DNA of 60,742 bases, filler included, from Hausera hauseri (taxonomy: Eukaryota): assembly GCA_046269625.1 (NCBI GenBank). It is 12 parts of 12 records of this genome, joined end to end, with 100 filler letters (N's around TTAATTAATTAA, not from the genome) between each part and the next. Parts side by side here need not be neighbours in the genome. Positions count along the whole stretch, not along the records: positions 17,024 to 21,359 come from JBJURY010629774.1; 11 more parts are not named here. One strand, written 5' to 3'. Both the position numbers and the translations under genes were made by a program. Under the pieces are notes generated by a model. That model worked only from the letters and a program-made list of their open reading frames with translations, had not been told where the DNA came from and searched no databases. This document shows positions 464-54,410 of the stretch, piece by piece (position 1 is the stretch's first letter; the number at the start of each line of letters is the position of its first letter).

Positions 464-1105
464 TCAACTTTTAACCTGTACGGATCGCCAATTATCCGAA
501 GTAATTTTATCCTTATGAGTAAACCTCCATGATGATGGTGTGTATTGTTTATTGCAGTTTCTGTTGGCAGAATAATTGTTTGATGATTTGTAATTGTTGC
601 CATATCCATTGGGTTTAGTCTGATAATTTATGCATTTTTCAGGTGACAAACTTCTTTTTACTATAGTATTTCTCTTATCCTGACCAAACGAAATTGTATT
701 TACAGCATTAACAAAGTCTTTTGCCTTTGCATTACTACAAAATCCAACTGAAATACAAAATCCATTACATATGTAGAGATTTACTAAACGATCCGTCATT
801 ATTACGGAGACTTGTTCATCAATCAATTTCTGGTACATCTTATGTTCTGTATTGCCAGAGAATTTGTTGAAAAATAAAAATCCGTATGAAGGTACACCAT
901 TTCGCTTGTACAGAAAAGCAGTACCAGTGACGTAATTTACATCTAGCGTTCCGTCTAAATCATTGAAGTACACCTTAACATCGTCGAAGCTTCGTTTTAT
1001 CTCCACACACAAGTCATCATGTTTTCTGATAACATTCAATCGCATTTTTTGTGCAACTTCTTCATACGATTGAAGTGATTTTGAATAATTATTCGAATTA
1101 AACAT
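464..1105 (-). CDS. DCP1: Divergent Dcp1-like (mRNA decapping activator, EVH1 domain) protein
   Basis: MRLNVIRKHD..EI..VKVY..VTGTAFLYKRNGVPSYGFLFFNK follows the Dcp1 pattern (LxxLxxHDxxI..VxLY..GTLFVYxR..PxxGFxIxNR). Intact, intronless, with an Asn-rich tail. Confidence 0.75.
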   Translation of the reverse strand: MFNSNNYSKSLQSYEEVAQKMRLNVIRKHDDLCVEIKRSFDDVKVYFNDLDGTLDVNYVTGTAFLYKRNGVPSYGFLFFNKFSGNTEHKMYQKLIDEQVSVIMTDRLVNLYICNGFCISVGFCSNAKAKDFVNAVNTISFGQDKRNTIVKRSLSPEKCINYQTKPNGYGNNYKSSNNYSANRNCNKQYTPSSWRFTHKDKITSDNWRSVQVKS

Positions 1106-3016: not shown

Positions 3017-3380
3017 GTGAGCAATTACAAACGATCAAATTCAGATTTAGCGGACAGACCAGAGGGCGGGGATTTTCCAACCCTACCCAAGCCGGGCGAC
3101 GAGGTGGACGGCGTGCATGCGAACGCGGCCAACATGGCGACTTACGCCACAATGGACATCTTCGCGAACCAATTGCTGCCCAACAAATTCAGGAAAGGCG
3201 ACGACGTAGAGAAGTTCATTAAAGGATGTGAAAAATTCTTTAAATATATGAACACTCCGGCGGCAAAGCGAGAAATCATGGTTGAATGTCTCTTGGAGGA
3301 AGATGCACTATAAAGATGCGAGGCAATAGATGCAATGATCACGGGATACCAAAACCGACTACGGAAGGCTTTCGCCCGAT
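3017..3380 (+). pseudogene. LTR-retrotransposon Gag N-terminal fragment
   Basis: PNKFRKGDDVEKFIKGCEKFF...LLEEDAL*...YQNRLRKAFA resembles a capsid N-terminal helix pattern. Has an internal stop and is truncated at the pPolB junction. Confidence 0.55.
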
Positions 3381-5300
3381 CCTCAGGGTTTATGATTGTC
3401 ACCATATTTTGAAATGGCCAATAAACGGATTTCCGCGCTGGGAACTATCCGTAATTCTGACTACGATGGAGAAATACCTGTCACTGTCTTCTCGTATAAA
3501 CCGGTTTAAAGTACAATTCCTTGATTTATTGCAATTTCTCAATGAATCTCTGGCAAAGCTAGTAAATGCCTTGCCAGATGTGCCGCTAACATTGACTCAG
3601 TTCCACGTACATATTTCGCGTAACAAAAGCATATTCCCATATGACTTTGCGACATCGTACGAGTGGCTCCAGACGACAAACGAATTACCACTGCAATGGC
3701 CCTGTATCACAGAAGAAGAATATCACAGAGCAAAGTCGTTTTGGGCTGAGCTCGGCTGCAGAAACCTCTTGGAGTACATGTTTCACTATCTGAAATTGGA
3801 TGTGTACCTGTTAGCCCATGTGTTTCAGACATTTCAAGCTAAGGCGTTGGCAGAAGATAGTCTGGAGCTCCTCAACTTTTACTCAATACCCGGAATGAGT
3901 TAGGCATCAGCTCTGGTGTCACTGGATAGGGATATTGAGCTATTGCAAGACCCGAAAATGTACCGAATGTTTGATGTTGGTATTCGTGGCGTCATGACAT
4001 TTGTCAACAATCATTACGTAATTAGTGATGATATTATATCACTGTTGTATATTGCCATTAATAACCTGTACGGCTGGGCGCTTTTGCAACCCTTGTCGTA
4101 CAGTTTATTCAAATGGGGAGTTGACAAAGAGGACCTGGACACAATACTGGAAAATCTGCCTAGAGCAGACACGGCAGAAAACAGCTCAATCGGGTACCTG
4201 ATGGAAGGTGATCTCGTGGTACCAGATGAACTGCATGACTTTCAGGATGAACTGCCGGTAGCACCAATTAGCCAATGTCCAACGGGCTCGAAGGTGAAGA
4301 AGCTGATTATGACGTATGAACATAAACAAAACTACATAGTTCATTGGAGTCTGTTGCAATTTTACATGCAGTTGGGTGTACGCGTCCTACAGCTGCGTCG
4401 CGCAATCCGATTTGCGTAGGCCCCGATATCTAAGCCGTATATTAGTCGGAATTCGGAAAAACGAGCTAAAGCTTGTACAAAGTTTGAAAAAGACTATTAC
4501 AAACTTAAAAATAATTCGCTCTACGGAAAATTAGTAGAAAATCTGGAAAAGCGGCTCAATGTACGCCTGTGCAATAACGAAAAGCGGTTGGTCACGTACA
4601 TGAGCAAGGTACCGTTCAGGCGATCAATGCACATTGTCGATGGATTGGTTGCCGTGCTTTTAAACAGGGAAGGAGTCGTACTGGACCGGCCAAGTTATAT
4701 AGGGCAAGTGGTATTGGATCTGAGCATGTTGCGGATATATAAACTGCAGTATCGCGATTTGGCACGATACCGGCAAATGTTTGGTGGTGGCGGATGCAGA
4801 ATCAGTATAATTGCCGGTGACACAGATAGTTATTCTTGGAACTGGCAAACGTCAATCGATAACAACTACTGCGGCAAATGATGAAAGACAGATTACTGGA
4901 CACATCCAATTACCCACAGAATCATCCATTGTACAGCAACGCCATCACAAACAAAATTGGCTGCTTCAAGGATGAAAGTGAAAGTCGGGTTCAGTATAGA
5001 GAATTGATATTTCTACTGCCAAAATATTAGTCTTTTAACTAACTGTGGACCAATAATGCGCGCCAAAGGAGTTAAGTTGGCCCAGACGGAAATAAGTCGC
5101 GGTGATTTTTGCTGTATTTATGAAGGAGGACACGGAGAACAAAAACAAAGGCTGTTGTGTCACAAACGATCATCCGATCGACTGAGCACCAGTTGTATAC
5201 GGTGACCAATACAAAAGTCGCTTTATCATGTAATGATGATAAGCGTAAGTGCGTGGGGCGAAATAAGAGTTGGACTTACGGACATTGCCCTTTGGAATAA
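3381..5300 (+). pseudogene. Polinton/Maverick protein-primed family B DNA polymerase (pPolB), decayed
   Basis: YDCHHIL (ExoII), FLDLLQFL, KSIFPYDF, YLKLDV (ExoIII), GIRG, INNLYGWA (motif A), KLKNNSLYGK (motif B), GDTDS (motif C), terminal DDKR...YGH. Several stops and frameshifts. Confidence 0.95.
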
Positions 5301-5552
5301 AATACACGCACACGCATGAATTCGGTGCTGATGAGACAGACCGATTAAAGGACCCATATACTGTGACAATTCATTTCGATCTGCGTTTTGTATAAATAAT
5401 GTATATTATTCGTTGCCTTTGCCTTTTGTTTTATCATTTAATTTATCTCTATATATTTATATATTTAGCTAAATGTGACGAGAAACAATATGAAAAACAA
5501 ACAAAATTAATAAAATTTATTAATCATAAGCTAAAATCAAAAACAAAGTAAG

Positions 5553-6070
5553 TCAAATCAGCGTAAACTTTCCCACCTTCCATATTGGTGATTTAACGCC
5601 GTGCAGATCCTTGTATCCTTTCAACTCCAATATTAGATAGCCTTTAGCTCCTTCCGGTGGCAAAACTGCTGTTGCTCCTGCTGCTGTTTCTCCGTCATGT
5701 AAACTGACAATTTTCGCCATATTTCCTTTGAGAAAAATTGATGATGTATCCCGGATATCGTTACCCAACGCCAAATATCTGTCAACTTTTCTATTTGTGT
5801 CTTCCATTGTATCCAAATAATCATTGCTGATTTTTTTCAACAATAGACCATATTTCACCGGTTTGAATTTGACCGTTTGCATCAATGGCAATTGAATAGC
5901 GTTGCGCAGATAATAAAAGTTGTATCTATTTTACAACCGGGAATTTCTGAGCGAATATTTGCTGTACTTTGGATTTTTTGAGAGACTCGCGGAACTGTCA
6001 CCTGAATTGTTTTGTAGACATTTTTTAAAGAAGACAAACGTGAAATGAAATTGCATCCATATTCATTCAT
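5553..6070 (-). pseudogene. Unknown Polinton-associated protein, probably one ORF split by a frameshift
   Basis: Overlapping ORFs 5882-6070 and 5553-5891, convergent with pPolB and packed directly after the RING ORF. Confidence 0.4.
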
Positions 6071-6383: not shown

Positions 6384-6483
6384 NNNNNNNNNNNNNNNNN
6401 NNNNNNNNNNNNNNNNNNNNNNNNNNNTTAATTAATTAANNNNNNNNNNNNNNNNNNNNNNNNNNNNNNNNNNNNNNNNNNNN
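6384..6483. other. Artificial contig spacer (N44 + TTAATTAATTAA + N44), first of 11
   Basis: Identical 100-nt linker with stops in all six frames, also at 12703-12802, 16924-17023, 21360-21459, 26300-26399, 31978-32077, 36483-36582, 41029-41128, 45523-45622, 50193-50292 and 54311-54410. Confidence 0.99.
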
Positions 6484-14842: not shown

Positions 14843-16505
14843 ATTTTTTAGTAATATTGGTATTTACATACACGACAAATTTTATTGAAATCTGCGTTAG
14901 ACATCCCAATAGTGTTCCTTATCAGGTTATGTTGACTTTTTTGTAACACAAATAAATTATTCTAACTACCAATCCCTTTAACCTGCGTAAGGACAGGGGA
15001 ATGCATTATTTTATGTTAGACTGCATATTTACCACCTTTCTCAATCTTGCTTAGAAATGATGCATAAATATATACTGTTTTTGTCGATCCTTGACGAAAT
15101 CTTCACTCATTAATACCTATAGGCTTTGTGTATTAATAGAATATGTTAATATTACAATATTCGGAGTTTCGAATAAATCTGGTATACTGATAGGGATCAA
15201 TTTTGACTCAATAAAACAATTACAGTCAAGCTGGTCTTCTTGGACTAAACAGCCATTTAAAATATTAAATGTTATTTTGTACAAAAACACATTAGGTGCG
15301 GGAGAAAAGGTCGTGCAAATACATCATGAAGCTGTAATTGTCTTTAACAATATGATTAAATTTTGTGAAATGTAACAAAATAAAAATTTAGAAAACGGAT
15401 ACCAGAAGAATTGTGCATGATTTATCGAAAAAATAATTTCGTAATCACTGAAAGAATGTTTATCCCTGGGTTTTGTTCTATCGGCAATAGTCATCAGTAA
15501 AAGTCAGGACGATTAAGAGGAATATGCTGAGAATGGTCAACATTACATTTGATAGATTTAGCGATGATGGACAGATATCGTTAAGTCAAGTTTCGTTCAT
15601 ATAACAAAAATAGTTAGAGCTTGCTTTCACGATATAACTTATGATAAAATATTAGTGCACGATACCAGCTGTGTTACTGCTGTAGCATGCAGATCTGATC
15701 ATTCTTGAGTTATTTTTTGAGAAAATAAGTTACCTCTGGTGGTTTTACAGCGGTGGGTTGACAGGATCAACTACTAATCATGCGTGATACATATCTTGAC
15801 AATCAAAAGTGTTGTCAATCATGCGCAATGAAAATAACGTAAAAAGAAATTAAACTGAATCCGTAATTCTTATGAACTGAAAGTCTACAATGCCATCCTT
15901 AAAATATCAATAGTTGAAATAAAGTCATTGATTTAAAGTTTTTTACAAACATTATTCCAATTTATCATAACCTAAGTAGTCCATACTGTAAGGCTCCGAG
16001 CAAATTCCATGGCGGCACTTTATGTAAGGTAATCAAACACAAAAGATTACACATTAAAAAATATAATATTTTATCTCAAAATCTAAGATAGTATGTCTGC
16101 GCTGTTACCGTTCAGTGTAACTATAAAAAGCATATTGAATATGAAACTGCTGGTCTTTAGTCTCTTGCATTAATTCGCCGATTTTAAATGTATCAAATTA
16201 TGATACGGAACATGTATCAAATAGCTAACTGCTCTTAGCGAGAGAGATTATCAAAAATCCTACAATTATATCAAAAAATTAAAAAACTGCTGCACATAAA
16301 CATATCTCAACGGATTCTAAATTAAATTAACCAAAATCATGTTCACAAAATATTCACAATTTATAGAAACATTTTCAAGTAAGAAAGTAATTGTCAGATT
16401 TCACGAATTTATTCCAGTGATATAGTATGTTACTTCAACAAAGTCTTAACTTAATTTTTTTGTTTTATCATTTTAACAAATTAAAAATATTCAAAAAGTA
16501 TTCAA

Positions 16506-16893
16506 ATGTCTAGGTTCGATTTTCTTTTGAATTTTATCACGGTTAACGAAGAAAATCTCAACTTTAGATTAGTGTTTACACCACTTGTTTTGTTTTATAT
16601 TCCACTCGGATTGATTTTGGTTTTAATCCGAAGTCTTCTTTTTATTTATGTATTTTTAGCATCTGTAATTTTGTATACAGTACCACCCATCAAAAGGTTT
16701 TTAAATGGTTTATCAATTATCAATAGTTAAACCTAGATAATTTAGAATAACTTTAAGATTTATGTGTTCGTTCCTTGGATTTTTAATAACAAGTGAAGGA
16801 AAACCGTGTTGTTCACCTGATCAGCCATTGGTTTCTAATTGTGTAACGCTGTTTGATCATATGGGACTAAATTTGCTGACGAATTGCGTTACA
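16506..16893 (+). CDS. AUP1: Ancient ubiquitous protein 1 (lipid-droplet/ERAD factor), 5' exons
   Basis: LFYIPLGLILVLIRSLL...KR|ITLRFMCSFLG...LVSNCVTLFDH..LNLLTNCVT matches the AUP1 N-terminus. Intron 16697-16745; next donor at 16894. Confidence 0.85.
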
Positions 16894-17023
16894 GTAGTTT
16901 ATTATTTTAGTGATTATTGTGAANNNNNNNNNNNNNNNNNNNNNNNNNNNNNNNNNNNNNNNNNNNNTTAATTAATTAANNNNNNNNNNNNNNNNNNNNN
17001 NNNNNNNNNNNNNNNNNNNNNNN

Positions 17024-17860
17024 GAATCTAGTCCAATAAAAGCCGATAGTTGTTTACGGTCTCCGTCAACATATACGGGTTCGGTTAGATCCGTTAAAAT
17101 ATTGATTTGACGAAATACTTAGTAGAAACGTGGTTTATGTTTAGCAACAATGGGCCGTCCGCCGATTTTACCGAATTCTCGTTTCTTAAAACCCAGATTT
17201 CGTGACAATAGTTCATCAAAGGCAAAATGTGTAACATTATCATGTAGTGTAAACAAAATACGACCATCAGAGTTTAACTCAAATATCTTGAGAGCCAATT
17301 TAGCTACAATCTTGATGGTTGAACACAATTCTGTTTCCGTTTCTATAAGAAAACCAGTTTCTGGTTTATGAAAGTAAAAGAATGATTCAGTCTTTTGCCA
17401 GTTAACTGTAATATCGGTGGTTTTCATGGTGTTTTTCGAAAAGTTCAATTTTCACTAATTGTACTATGTCCACCGAGCTACATACCTTTCGAGGGCACAT
17501 TGATAGATTGAAAACCCCATGCCTGAGCGTCGGCTAATGATTTGAATTGAAATTCAATTGGATGTTTGTATTTCAGTACCAATTGACTGTTTAAATAAAA
17601 AATATAAACATGGAAATATTGCCGCTTGTAATTACGGACGTGAAATCCCTTAGAGTCTCAAACTAACTGCCAACGACTAGATGCAGGCGATTGTCTTAGT
17701 AGAGTATAGTATATTCCATTGTTCTCACGTAATGTTATTGTTGAAAATTTAAATGTGAATTCCGTCAAAGCCACTTCTCAGGCTCTCTGGTGTAAACCGA
17801 AGGGATGGTCCAACGCCATGGTAAACCGTTTAGCGGTATTGTTGTTGTTGTTGTCATGTT
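17024..17860 (-). pseudogene. Polinton minor capsid (penton) protein
   Basis: N-terminal NNNTAKRFTMALDHPFGL...*EVALTEF and C-terminal LSRNLGF...INILTDLTEPVYVDG match the Polinton penton pattern. Confidence 0.75.
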
Positions 17861-17874
17861 CTTATAATATGTTA

Positions 17875-18960
17875 CTATAAAGTACCAAATAAATGCCCAT
17901 CACTCAATCTGCAATGTAAATATCCAACTCCATGTAGTGTATTCGTGCTACTTGACGAGATATTGTTTATTCGAACCTTTGCCACGTAAACGTAGGTTTT
18001 CCTGAATACGTTATACATCGGGTTTCTCGGGCCGTATCTGCAGTTTCTGTTCGTAGAATTTACCGCGTATTTCTCCACCGTTTTCATCCTCTGACACGTA
18101 CATGATAGGTGTTTGTTTTGTGTTGATTGCCAAAAATCGGGAAACCTCGTCGCTCCAGTTCTAATTGAAATTCTTAATGAATGGTGTCGTACTTATTTTT
18201 AAAATACGTAGAATACGTCGAAACACGTAGGCATTTAATTGCTCTTTGTCGGTTTTGATAAAGCCACATGTTCAAATCATACATTACGTCAACCGGGTGC
18301 ATTCCGCTCATTTCGCTGCTTGTCCAGTGATTGTATGCATGAATATCCGACAGTACATCTACCCAGCGTTTGTTCCATTGATTCGTAAAGAATTTGTTTA
18401 GGTGACCGCGCAGTGTTCGATTAAATCGTTAAACGAGTGCAGCCTTGTATTGGGAAAACGCGGAGTAATGGTTTACGCCGAACTGTTTCAATACCGCTGC
18501 AACGTGGGCGTTGTAGAATTTCTTACCCAAATCCATTTGTAAATGCTTCGGCTGTTGTTGTTGTTGTATCAGTTTCTAAACAGAGTCAGCAATCTCTTTA
18601 CCGGATTTAGATTTCACAGCAATTGCACGTGCAAAACAACTATACGCATCAACGCATGTCAGCACGTACAGATACCTATCGTTAATGCTGGCGTACGGAA
18701 CCATTTCCATCAGATCCATTTGCCATACGTTATTTATACCAGTAGCACGGTATGCACGAGTTTGAAAGCGCCTTCTTATCGGTTTGTTCAGGCTGTGTGC
18801 TAATTGTTTCCTAAGCCAACGTTGGGTTTGTCGCCGAGTCTGTTTCACAGTCTTTGCCAGTTTGTCGGCGCCAGTATACCCAACGGGATAACGCGGTTCG
18901 AACTATACGTCGCCCATCGTTGCCGTCGGTGTTGTCGATGATGTCGTTTTTGTTAGCATT
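17875..18960 (-). pseudogene. Polinton retroviral-like (rve) integrase
   Basis: HSLNKPIRRRF...WQMDL...YVLTCVDAYS...LQMDLGKKF...RFNRTL...YN...MHPVDV, with several disruptions. Confidence 0.92.
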
Positions 18961-19069
18961 ACAGAAATTAGAACGAAACGTTAATGAAAGATTCGGTAAA
19001 CGTGGACAAAATGAAGAAAACCATGCACCCATATTTCAAATCACCATATAGTTACCGTCATTGTTTATA

Positions 19070-19403
19070 CTAAACTGTTCTGCCAATGATTCCACACAGT
19101 AATGATGTGACAATCAGTAGAACTGCACCAAGGAATCCGCCATCTTGCTGGTACATGACCTGTCCTTTCAGTCGTATACTACGAGCATTGTCAAGGCCAA
19201 TGAGCCGTTTTCGATACTTTAGTTTAATTCCGCTTTCCACTACCAATGTCAACGTGATCCACAACGATACTGTATAAAATTTCCATATAATCGTCCGCAA
19301 CAAATTGCGGGAATCATCGCAGCATGATTCTCTTTTGTCTCGTAGGTGTCTTGAGCAAAGCAATAAAGTACGGCTGACGTATTCATTTTTTGGACGTATT
19401 CAT
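19070..19403 (-). pseudogene. Adintovirus/Polinton small basic pX-like virion protein
   Basis: Basic helix LKYRKRL followed by QQDGGFLGAVLLIV (QxGG|FL protease-site-like motif plus an amphipathic tail). Frameshifted. Confidence 0.65.
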
Positions 19404-19569
19404 GCTGAGACGTAGTTGTTTATAACCGTTGCCACTGTGACGGTAATTTTCATCTAGTTGCTGCTGCTGTTGTTCGAAGCACAGAATTGATTAATCGCTT
19501 GACTGTAGCAGTTCCTTTTGATACACGTTTCTTGCCTGGCACCCGCTTGGTAGGTTTACGTTTAACAAT

Positions 19570-20238
19570 TTTTTAGGAAATTCTTCATTTTATCACAATC
19601 ATGTCGTCGATTTTCGAAATGTGTTTATAGACACACACCTTTCTGATTGAAAATGTCTGTTCGTACACACATATCATCGGGACACTGTTGTGTAAAGTCG
19701 ATGAACAAGTACCCGTGTGGCTCGGTCGTAGAATCATGATATGCATCTGTCAAGTAGGCTCGGTTGTGAGGAAATGCTTGTCGTGCAACATAATCAATGA
19801 CAGTCTGATCACGTGGATTTTGGAGCAACACCAAATAGTGTACGTTTAGATTTCTTGTTCAATGCTGTCCGCCCTGATGGAACATGTTTTGCGTAATGAA
19901 AATAACCGTCACACCACGGTGTCGAGCAATCTTTGTGAACAGGTTGTTGAATTCCAATTGTTTTGCAACTTCCTGAAATAAATTGTCAATAACAGTAACA
20001 TCACCGTTGCGTAATCTCAGACAAATTCTCATCAAACCCATCAATTACCGTTATGGATTTCAGTTTACAAAATTTCCGATGTGTCAAACGGGATTCACCA
20101 TCATCACCAACACCCTGATGCCAGTATATATGATTATACCTCGGTGAATGGAGCATGTCACGGTAGTTCTGCAATAGTTTACACAATGTGTATTTTGCCA
20201 CTTCTACTGGGGCTTACAAATCTGGAAAATGGCATCAT
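19570..20238 (-). pseudogene. Polinton FtsK/A32-like packaging ATPase
   Basis: Degenerate Walker A SPSRSGK, Walker B VTVIDNL, then LFTKIARHRGVTVIFITQN, LLQNPRD, PHGYLFIDF and RTDIF. Confidence 0.92.
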
Positions 20239-20343
20239 TCTGCAGCTTCATCTAGTAATAATAAAATAACCTGTCCTCATATTATTTGTTTATAATCGTG
20301 TTACACGCGTATAAATATCTCTAGTATAAACACTGTTTCCATA

Positions 20344-20859
20344 ATGTTAGCTAATATCAATTATCGCGGACATGTTACCGAGTGTGACATTAACACACTA
20401 CCTTTTATTCAATGGAAGAAGAGGCAGTATGTCCTCAAGTGTCCATCGGATTTTACATGCATCGTATTTCAATCGGGAAAGTGTCGTATTATGAGTCGTT
20501 GCAAACCAATCACAGATGATAAACTACTACCATTCGGGATTATCATTGAAAAAATCCAATCAATAACGGTAACGACTCAGTTAGACTACCACCAAACAAT
20601 CAATTTGTACAAATTATTAATGACCGCTGCTGAATGTACATATGAACCCGAACTGTTTCTTGCACTGAGACTGACATCGTTTTGTCCACTCTGTGTCAGT
20701 GCGTTTACCAGTGGAAAAATTGTTGTTCTCGGTATTCGGACAGTGGACTATAAACCGATTATTAATCAAATTAAAAACCACATAAATGTTTCAGTGAATC
20801 AAAATAATGTACATTGCACAACAACAACAAACTATAAATACAATTCCCATGCCCATTGA
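20344..20859 (+). CDS. TATA-binding-protein (TBP)-like protein
   Basis: Two TBP half-repeats: ANINY..CIVFQSGKCRI and IQSITVT..INLYKL..YEPELFLAL..PLCVSAFTSGKIVVLG. Intact and intronless, with TATAAA motifs just upstream. Confidence 0.88.
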   Translation: MLANINYRGHVTECDINTLPFIQWKKRQYVLKCPSDFTCIVFQSGKCRIMSRCKPITDDKLLPFGIIIEKIQSITVTTQLDYHQTINLYKLLMTAAECTYEPELFLALRLTSFCPLCVSAFTSGKIVVLGIRTVDYKPIINQIKNHINVSVNQNNVHCTTTTNYKYNSHAH

Positions 20860-20871
20860 GACATTACTACC

Positions 20872-21117
20872 ATGGAAGACGACGACAAAACGATTCTACT
20901 CAATGGTGCCAATGATGAAAGTTCAGTTTGGTCGTGGTTGTTTGGCTACAAAAAGGACAATTCTAATGTCAAAATGCTCGAACCACCTGTCCAACAATTT
21001 GAAAAACCGGGTGGTTGTCTGCAGGCCGATTGTCTAAAAACGGAACAGGAACTTGATCATAAAGCAGCAGCAAAACCGACGTTAAAAAGGCACATTGCAA
21101 TGATTGGAATACGTTAA
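20872..21117 (+). CDS. Small Polinton accessory ORF, possibly frameshifted
   Basis: ATG 12 nt after the TBP-like stop; no recognised family. Confidence 0.35.
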   Translation: MEDDDKTILLNGANDESSVWSWLFGYKKDNSNVKMLEPPVQQFEKPGGCLQADCLKTEQELDHKAAAKPTLKRHIAMIGIR

Positions 21118-21459
21118 CGAAACTCAAAACCGTCGGCGTCGCGCCAAACAGATATTTTTACGAAACGAATTTTTCGCAAGTACGAAATGCATTTTCTGCA
21201 AAGGCCCCTACTGATTTCATTGAATGATCCCGTATCTTTATGTGCACCCAAGTACAACTATCGTGTAAAACGGCTTTCGGGTGAAAATTGGGATAATCCT
21301 TCTGATGCTCTACATTACATAAACGTTGTTGTAAAGTTAAACGAAACGACCGTGCAAAANNNNNNNNNNNNNNNNNNNNNNNNNNNNNNNNNNNNNNNNN
21401 NNNTTAATTAATTAANNNNNNNNNNNNNNNNNNNNNNNNNNNNNNNNNNNNNNNNNNNN

Positions 21460-53625: not shown

Positions 53626-54410
53626 TTTCATAATATCTTTGGATGGCATGGAATGTATGCTGAGAAGATCTCGTAGCATCTTCCATTGTGGACTGATGCA
53701 CATACATTCCTCAATAATCAAACCAACAACCCCTCCAATTCCAATGAGTTTGGAAAGACAACATTGTAAGCAAGCCCGAGAAACCGGAAGACTGAAATGG
53801 GATAGCATGGAATTAGAAATGCAACCTGGAAAAATAATCAGAGCGTATAAGATAGTAGCCGGAAGGCTAGATATGCATAACGGGCACTGTAGTGGAACGG
53901 AATACGATACCGGAAAAGGATTGGAAGATACGTAGTAGTAGTAGACTTTTACGAATCACAGATGCGAGTCCAAAAAGTAATGTTCCATAGCGTCACTAAT
54001 TTATATACTGAGAATCAAAAATGTCACATGCAAGACAAAACTTGTGTCTTCAGAAGTTCTATCGTCATATAGGAACCACCTACCGGGAAAGCCTGTAATT
54101 TTATTAAGATCAAAGAATTGAAATTTAACGAAACTACGGGGAAACGATACGTAGATAAATCCGACATCAGTTCAAGAGCACGTGAAGACGTATCAGAACA
54201 TCATACACCTACGATATTAATGTCTGACCAACATGGATTGAAAATCATAAAAAAGGAAATGATTTCACGATGTGAAGTGGTAATGTTTACAACCAACTAC
54301 GAATAGTTCTNNNNNNNNNNNNNNNNNNNNNNNNNNNNNNNNNNNNNNNNNNNNTTAATTAATTAANNNNNNNNNNNNNNNNNNNNNNNNNNNNNNNNNN
54401 NNNNNNNNNN

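Follow-up and report, generated by a model that had tools for sequence, protein, structure and literature searches.

The DNA analysed here, referred to as the window, is a 60,742 nt stretch of the Hausera hauseri assembly GCA_046269625.1. It is made up of pieces of 4-6 kb joined by N-TTAATTAATTAA-N linkers, with runs of N at 6384, 12703, 16924, 21360, 26300, 31978 and onward, and the order and adjacency of genes across these linkers may be artificial. The piece of interest (17024..21359, from record JBJURY010629774.1) lies between two N-linker gaps and, judged from the map of N runs and from profile matches, appears to consist entirely of Polinton/adintovirus-type DNA, in which neither a terminal repeat nor a junction with host sequence was seen. 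Its plus strand carries a gene for a small TBP-like protein, called mini-TBP below (the copy in the window being P0001), and its minus strand the broken remains of a packaging ATPase and other virus-type genes. The features of the piece are as follows:

17024..17900, minus strand: penton-like (minor capsid) gene, broken and cut by the gap, weakly aligned, with at least 1 frame change and 3-4 stops
17906..19032, minus strand: rve integrase, broken, with 1 frame change and 5-6 stops
19063..19069, minus strand: TATAAAC, 30 nt before a Met-Gly start that precedes the integrase region
19073..19403, minus strand: c4, a conserved gene of about 100 aa between ATPase and integrase, broken, with 1 frame change and 1-2 stops
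19418..19424, minus strand: TATAAAC before c4
19623..19629, minus strand: TATAAAC at the ATPase stop
19628..20251, minus strand: A32/FtsK-type packaging ATPase, broken, with at least 2 frame changes and 1 stop; its relatives match Pox_A32
20288..20294, minus strand: TATAAAC, 36 nt before the likely ATPase start, a candidate late-promoter box
20310..20316, plus strand: TATAAAT, 27 nt before the TBP-like ATG
20325..20331, plus strand: TATAAAC, 12 nt before the TBP-like ATG
20344..20859, plus strand: mini-TBP gene (P0001), 171 aa, single exon, frame open but decaying, with a tail longer than that of most relatives
20833, plus strand: TATAAAT, 32 nt upstream of the 81-aa ORF and inside the tail of the TBP-like ORF
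20872..21117, plus strand: 81-aa ORF from ORF calling, with no family match in Pfam
21118..21359, plus strand: fragment of the accessory family c1, cut by the gap (E 2e-10 to the c1 profile, and alignment)

Breaks in the ATPase, c4, integrase and penton-like gene were located by tblastn with intact relatives. A preliminary description of this DNA had reported the ATPase, integrase and penton as disrupted, and stops or frame changes were found in all three, but the last owes its name to its size, its place in the gene order and a weak profile match (E 1e-6), without Pfam support. It had also placed the TBP-like gene head-to-head with the ATPase across about 100 nt containing TATAAA twice; by reading of the sequence the gap is 92 nt, between the likely ATPase start at 20251 and the ATG at 20344, and the two plus-strand boxes begin at 20310 and 20325. 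The minus-strand TATAAAC that faces the ATPase (20294-20288) had been missed. No Pfam match was obtained for c4. Before the integrase, at 18811-19035 (minus strand), a Met-Gly start is followed by a short conserved basic and Cys-containing stretch that is also present in related integrase genes; this region could be a myristoylated leader or else a small protein of its own. Public contigs covering the 4.3-kb piece numbered 29,150 records in one sequencing run (run 1) and 1,446 in another (run 2); those of run 1 were mostly 90-99% alike and covered all 30 bins. These sequences point to a high-copy, diverged family, although the summed depth does not give a copy number.

Retrotransposon integrases and a reverse transcriptase were found in other pieces of the window, as were a mariner transposase, a broken protein-primed PolB and a MATH domain; this content suggests a repeat-rich animal genome as the host. 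The PolB (3250-5297; 8-9 stops and 1 frame change) is on another contig piece, where it is followed on the opposite strand by an open c1-family gene at 5556-5930, so that 3250-5930 forms a second Polinton piece. The same contig carries, at 464-1105 (minus strand), an intronless open ORF of 213 aa with a Dcp1-like decapping domain (E 2.5e-6), which may be a retrocopy, a host gene or an accessory gene of the element. A fragment of a Monjiviricetes-type fusion glycoprotein (53648-53935, E 6.5e-9) was found among LTR retrotransposon remnants. Left of the gap that precedes our piece, two short ORFs (16485-16923) resemble exons of a membrane protein of the host, which we take to be AUP1-like; they had no Pfam match.

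A search with Pfam TBP (PF00352), which had been proposed as a check, matched P0001 over residues 70-135 (E 2.8e-9), in the second lobe only. The AlphaFold2 model, built on 43 sequences, had a mean pLDDT of 88.8, and when its residues 1-152 were compared with human TBP 164-337 by VIA-align both lobes were superimposed (Z 13.2, 149 residues, rmsd 2.7 Å). Foldseek against the PDB returned 44 matches at E<=0.001, all of them above the first row that was not a TBP, and every match displayed within that threshold was a TBP; in BFVD the best matches of mini-TBP were giant-virus TBPs. On the results of Pfam, model, Foldseek and VIA-align together, P0001 has the two-lobed saddle of TBP repeats.

Within this fold the DNA-binding anatomy was partly retained. 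Three of the four intercalating Phe of canonical cellular TBP (F42, F105 and F121) are present in P0001 and 99-100% conserved among 124 relatives, whereas the first position has no conserved Phe in those relatives, as the preliminary description had proposed. A Tyr at position 29 was considered as a stand-in and rejected, since the alignment register puts the Phe at 24-26. In lobe 1, N6, R48 and M50 (95-100% conserved) replace the Val, Val and Thr of the cellular rows. We assume that lobe 1 lies over the 3' half of the box, with these three positions turned towards the DNA. Such an orientation is consistent with the preference for T at the first box position that the accessible text of PMC12529657 attributes to a conserved TBP proline, which by the numbering of that paper lies just after the third Phe. 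The stirrup glutamates E101 and E103 were conserved in 97% and 100% of the 124 relatives, and by motif position they match Glu residues described as TFIIB contacts in the part of PMC7221094 consulted. The long basic helix of lobe 1 was missing: in the model, strands 46-52 and 67-79 are not linked by any helix as long as 4 residues, and the corresponding region is a gap in mini-TBP when it is aligned with cellular rows. The first lobe of mini-TBP is thus remodelled, with the TFIIB-contact glutamates and three Phe kept.

Searching with the P0001 sequence by itself gave 42 relatives of 38-72% identity, most of them 144-165 aa long. A profile search gave 469 matches, of which the best 120 were listed; mini-TBP representatives at E<=1e-30 numbered 57. 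The conservation figures come from an alignment of P0001 with 124 relatives. Mini-TBP is a compact family (about 150 aa, at least 125 sequences) that evolves under purifying selection.

A metagenome scan with mini-TBP yielded 57 loci. Using profiles built from these loci, 28 had a Polinton core gene, 24 had recurring accessory families only and five, all shorter than 1.6 kb, had neither; when near-identical loci were merged a core gene was present in 23 of 41 groups, and among loci of at least 3 kb in 17 of 22. Pfam, run on 148 of the 367 ORFs called in L001-L058, identified A32 ATPases, rve(+chromo) integrases, adenain proteases (Peptidase_C5) and protein-primed PolB, as well as a PLA2 domain in one locus. 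The rve integrase and the A32/FtsK ATPase, present as pieces at 17024..21359, are intact in relatives. A double jelly-roll capsid, recognised in the structure model of a 408-aa gene of L013 from matches to iridovirus and PBCV-1 capsids (E 1e-14), and the adenain protease were found in relatives only and are absent from the 4.3-kb piece. PolB occurred together with the TBP-like gene in 4 of the 57 loci (L013, L017, L023 and L056). No Pfam match to TFIIB or RNA polymerase was obtained in 142 distinct ORFs of the 57 loci, most of which are fragments. Repeated adjacency to core genes had been suggested as a check, and under a stricter cut the ATPase was present in 17 loci, in 16 of which it lay no further than 1.7 kb from the TBP-like gene; the two genes were divergent in only 2 of the 17. 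Proximity to the ATPase therefore recurs but the head-to-head order is not conserved, and a special meaning of the layout seen in the window is not supported. The proposal of a Polinton/adintovirus-type element with its own TBP-like gene was borne out by the fold, the family and the core genes of the related loci, and P0001 is almost certainly a member of a TBP family of such elements.

Several accessory families recurred in these loci. The c3 family (L029:5870-6352, L017:156-674 and others) comprises proteins of about 160 aa with an acidic N-terminal motif and invariant Cys/His, and is often encoded directly upstream of the TBP-like gene; it had no Pfam or PDB sequence match, and by eye we take it to resemble a DEDD-type nuclease. 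The c1 family, a frequent neighbour of the TBP-like gene, likewise had no Pfam or PDB sequence match, and the fragment in the window had no Atlas match either. Upstream of c1 (L003, L007, L013 and L035) there are splice-donor-like words and AT-rich stretches, so that a single gene may have c6 and c1 as its exons; c1 looks beta-rich, and our guess is that it is possibly an OB-fold DNA-binding protein. Other genes near the TBP-like gene (L023:225-719, L003:4008-4316, L045:1710-2168 and L014/L017/L043/L047) include a ubiquitin-conjugating enzyme, a dual-specificity phosphatase, a RING finger and LRR proteins.

The piece in the window has four minus-strand TATAAAC boxes along the block from the ATPase to the integrase. 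The TATAAAT at 20310..20316 is likely, from its sequence and position, to be a host-type TATA box for the mini-TBP gene, and the TATAAAC at 20325..20331 is probably too close to serve that gene; a TATAAAC in this position is unusual (1/42 relatives). The 80 nt upstream of each assigned gene in the related loci were then compared, with near-duplicates removed. YATAAAC was present before 13 of 14 ATPase genes (25-43 nt before the ATG), all 11 c4 genes, 7 of 8 capsid genes, 4 of 5 protease genes and 10 of 12 c3 genes, while shuffles of these late-class regions had means of 0.2-0.6 per class and a maximum of 4. Frequencies elsewhere were 3/9 for the integrase, 3/9 for the penton-like gene, 1/6 for c14, 3/13 for c1, 3/4 for c13, 1/9 for c9, 0/5 for c6, 0/1 for PolB and 1/42 for the TBP-like gene. 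The contrast between the ATPase, capsid, protease, c3 and c4 genes (45/50) and the TBP-like gene (1/42) gave a Fisher p of 4e-19, a descriptive value that overstates independence, as the late set was picked after the upstream sequences had been viewed and the elements are related, with several genes taken per element. The reverse held for a canonical TATA followed 19-27 nt later by the initiator-like word TCA(C/T/G)T (TATA+Inr), which was found before 21 of 56 TBP-like, c9 and c6 genes versus 2 of 50 in the late group; for the TBP-like gene taken separately, 10 of 42 upstream regions had this strict pattern and 24 of 42 a canonical TATA. In long loci YATAAAC follows the strand of the gene block (10 to 0 in L029, 10 to 0 in L045, 16 to 0 in L056, 13 to 3 in L023 and 7 to 4 in L013). 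At the level of sequence, then, a distinct TATA-variant box marks the structural genes of mini-TBP loci. Scans of viral contigs with ATPase, integrase and capsid alignments for Polintons lacking a TBP found no relative.

In the parts of the literature consulted, the consensus TATAWAWR excludes C at position 7 (PMC4457894), TATAAACG retained 27% of activity in a plant protoplast assay (PMC10005294, Table 4), and 1QN3, a TBP-DNA structure with C(-25), is one of the cases given for Hoogsteen pairs (PMC8643651). Host TBP is still able to bind a box with C at position 7, as seen in PDB 1QN3.

We propose that mini-TBP acts as the late-gene switch of the element. Host TFIID would transcribe the mini-TBP gene early, from an ordinary TATA(+Inr) promoter, and the product would then bind the YATAAAC boxes that lie about 25-45 nt ahead of the ATPase, capsid and protease genes and their neighbours; owing to its C at position 7, YATAAAC would be used poorly by host TBP. 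The unchanged Glu-Pro-Glu stirrup would recruit host TFIIB, hence Pol II, and so turn on the packaging and capsid genes, while loss of the long lobe-1 helix would free mini-TBP from host regulators that dock there. The link between mini-TBP and YATAAAC is inferred from their co-occurrence in the same elements and from the matching anatomy. For the whole reading, in which the window holds a decaying Polinton copy and mini-TBP would be the late-gene switch of its family, we estimate a probability of about 0.62; taken as a separate claim, that mini-TBP would be an activator of late genes that recruits host Pol II strikes us as fairly probable. Several observations sit badly with the switch: the box is mostly missing within 80 nt of the integrase (3/9), penton-like (3/9) and c14 (1/6) genes, host TBP can bind a box with C at position 7, only 10 of 42 TBP-like genes have the strict TATA+Inr pattern, and the copy in the window has a TATAAAC before its own TBP-like gene.

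The YATAAAC box may also be independent of mini-TBP. An arrangement of this kind is part of a second explanation, in which mini-TBP is mainly an antagonist that damps host transcription by binding host TFIIB or host TATA boxes without productive initiation, the reader of YATAAAC being host TBP or a different protein of the element. Conservation of the TFIIB stirrup in a protein with a remodelled first lobe and one intercalating Phe missing is what such an inhibitor might look like; host TBP tolerates C at position 7, with reduced activity, and several of the unnamed conserved accessory genes could encode a reader of the box. Yet the DNA-facing positions are near-invariant as new residues, in the lobe that would be expected at the changed end of the box, and the box avoids the TBP-like gene itself. 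We therefore regard antagonism as unlikely. It is also rather improbable that mini-TBP is a general booster without specificity of its own, adding to host TBP at every promoter of the element, for example on amplified genomes, and escaping host regulators: the retention of three Phe, the first Asn and the stirrup would suit this role, as would the general lack of the N-lobe regulatory signature in viral TBPs (PMC7221094, as far as its accessible text goes), but a strict C at position 7 in one class of genes, together with invariant new residues in lobe 1, would be left unexplained.

The late-gene switch, if it exists, concerns the family, and the copy in the window appears to be decaying. The preliminary description had called the 171-aa two-repeat protein intact and intronless; the open frame, single exon and fold were confirmed, but the protein itself is decaying. 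Of 38 near-invariant (>=85%) columns, P0001 deviates from the family in 6 (positions 26, 51, 52, 53, 106 and 119), the most of any of the 125 sequences, whereas its two closest relatives depart at one each. Its private differences from other copies over 20344-20800 (457 nt) numbered 23 and fell 11/8/4 on the three codon positions; these are the sites, out of 28, at which at least 85% of run-1 depth differed, the 5 polymorphic ones having been dropped, and the comparison copies, taken from public runs, are possibly from another individual or species. In seven non-overlapping pairs of related TBP-like genes the changes fell 44/32/108 (Fisher p 2e-4 vs P0001), and for P0001 the neutral expectation of one-third at third positions was not rejected (p 0.08). 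The terminal branch of P0001 is 0.26, about four times the 0.06-0.07 of its sisters, and its tail, which beyond G130 is 42 residues long where the median is 24, runs into the TATA of the next gene. Because of the departures at conserved columns, the private codon changes and the long terminal branch, the sequence of this copy is very probably that of a dead or decaying gene; it is most likely not under purifying selection, and is probably non-functional and open by chance.

The preliminary description had offered co-option as an alternative, with the host keeping P0001 by selection while the element decays. The frame has indeed stayed open next to some 12-15 breaks in the 2.8 kb of its four neighbours, and the chance of this is 0.33 if only substitutions are considered but only 0.06-0.14 at the break density of the neighbours. 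Selection on P0001 is nonetheless hard to reconcile with its having the most departures at conserved columns among the 125 sequences, with the scarcity of third-position changes among its private ones (4 of 23), a neutral-looking pattern, with its long terminal branch and with the thousands of contigs of other copies over the same gene, and co-option is in our view very unlikely.

The origin of the family was approached with trees, as had been suggested for recognising a host retrocopy. In a quick IQ-TREE analysis (LG+G4) of a chosen subset of 62 sequences, 37 rows of the family and its deeper relatives were separated by a long branch from 25 eukaryotic, archaeal and other TBPs with an SH-aLRT of 100, the outgroup rows being labelled by reading of their sequences, with a source name for P0150 only and none of them a verified TRF2. 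P0001 grouped with P0002 and P0003. AU tests on 26 rows, under LG+G4, a model more prone to long-branch error than a mixture model, rejected placement of P0001 with six eukaryotic TBPs (p-AU 2e-117) or with insect TBP (p 2e-102). That P0001 is a one-off retrocopy of a host TBP/TRF, or is joined to the ATPase by a chimeric assembly, can thus be set aside as having next to no chance, in spite of the intronless gene, the fragmentary assembly and the lack of a bridge between ATPase and TBP-like gene among the contigs listed from the two runs, in view of these AU tests, the recurrence of the ATPase in related loci and the absence of N between the two genes. With respect to the donor of mini-TBP, the AU test rejected neither a virus-like sister (p 0.30) nor a eukaryotic one (p 0.36). 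A scan of viral contigs with an insect TBP-like query and one of genome contigs with an archaeal TBP query found no relative.

A deeper branch (L056:9866-10372, L052, L055 and L058) retains more of the lobe-1 helix, and its TBP-like gene is directly upstream of the ATPase; it is a possible intermediate towards the minimal mini-TBP. These Polintons carry C2H2 zinc-finger genes, and L056 also KilA-N and PLA2. The single viral-contig match of the mini-TBP search was a distant TBP, 26% identical, in L001. That contig (3632-12940) also has a family-B polymerase split around an endonuclease VII gene, a ribonucleotide reductase and a heliorhodopsin; it is a different large virus, presumably mirusvirus-like.

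The locus itself carries little weight, as a single decaying copy in a high-copy family, and the interest lies at the level of the family. Here a stronger claim can be entertained, though we would put it a little short of even: that this large Polinton group has the smallest known viral late switch, one 150-aa TBP with a rebuilt first lobe that would read TATAAAC, which differs from the host consensus by one base, and plug directly into host TFIIB. If true, an early-to-late programme could be run without a viral polymerase, TFIIB or activator complex. On the timing of capsid-gene expression in Polintons, and on their status as true viruses, the pair of TBP and box would give a direct handle. 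As a marker in the sequence, YATAAAC would also help to predict which of the unnamed Polinton ORFs are late genes, and a natural altered-specificity TBP/box pair that still works on host TFIIB would inform studies of TBP specificity and synthetic promoters.

In gene content the mini-TBP loci resemble Polintons/Mavericks/adintoviruses (PMC8502044, PMC8097293): they share with them the integrase and A32/FtsK ATPase, the double jelly-roll capsid and adenain protease, and the protein-primed PolB, and a PLA2 domain occurs in a single locus. TBP is not among the eight core genes given for vertebrate Mavericks in PMC8097293, and the available text of that paper does not contain 'TATA'. In Starrett et al. 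(PMC8502044; preprint 10.1101/697771) 'TBP' is named in the legends of figures that deal with MELD viruses whose PolB is adinto-like, and it was not found in the one supplement of PMC8502044 that was searched; the main text of preprint 10.64898/2026.10.13.758929 has neither 'TBP' nor 'TATA'. A TBP in a Polinton-related element has thus been noted before, without analysis in the text seen. In the listed titles and abstract openings of the Polinton, adintovirus and Maverick literature, neither the mini-TBP family nor a TATAAAC box is described.

Mini-TBP is a real feature, a viral TBP mimic of a known type in variant form. With cellular and archaeal TBP (PF00352, with the paralogues TRF1/TRF2) it shares the saddle of two lobes (Z about 13), the Glu-Pro-Glu stirrup, three of the Phe and the first Asn; it differs in being about 22 residues shorter, without an N-terminal extension, in its reduced lobe-1 helices, in the first Phe not being conserved, in polar or new residues on the assumed DNA face, and in forming a separate long-branch clade. 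It has a viral TBP fold in common with the TBPs of Nucleocytoviricota and mirusviruses, which typically have a viral RNA polymerase. In those large viruses, according to the part of PMC7221094 consulted, TBP is usually accompanied by the virus's own TFIIB, the stirrup is variable and the TFIIB-contact positions are poorly kept. Functionally the closest model, and our working analogy, is the TBP mimic of herpesviruses (KSHV ORF24, EBV BcRF1), in which a virus without its own polymerase directs late genes from a deviant TATT box by means of a TBP-like protein whose DNA face is more polar (PMC12529657). ORF24, as described in the accessible text of the same paper, is a large protein belonging to a six-factor complex; it does not have the TFIIB glutamates, and its binding to Pol II is direct, whereas mini-TBP is a bare 150-aa domain in which those glutamates are kept.
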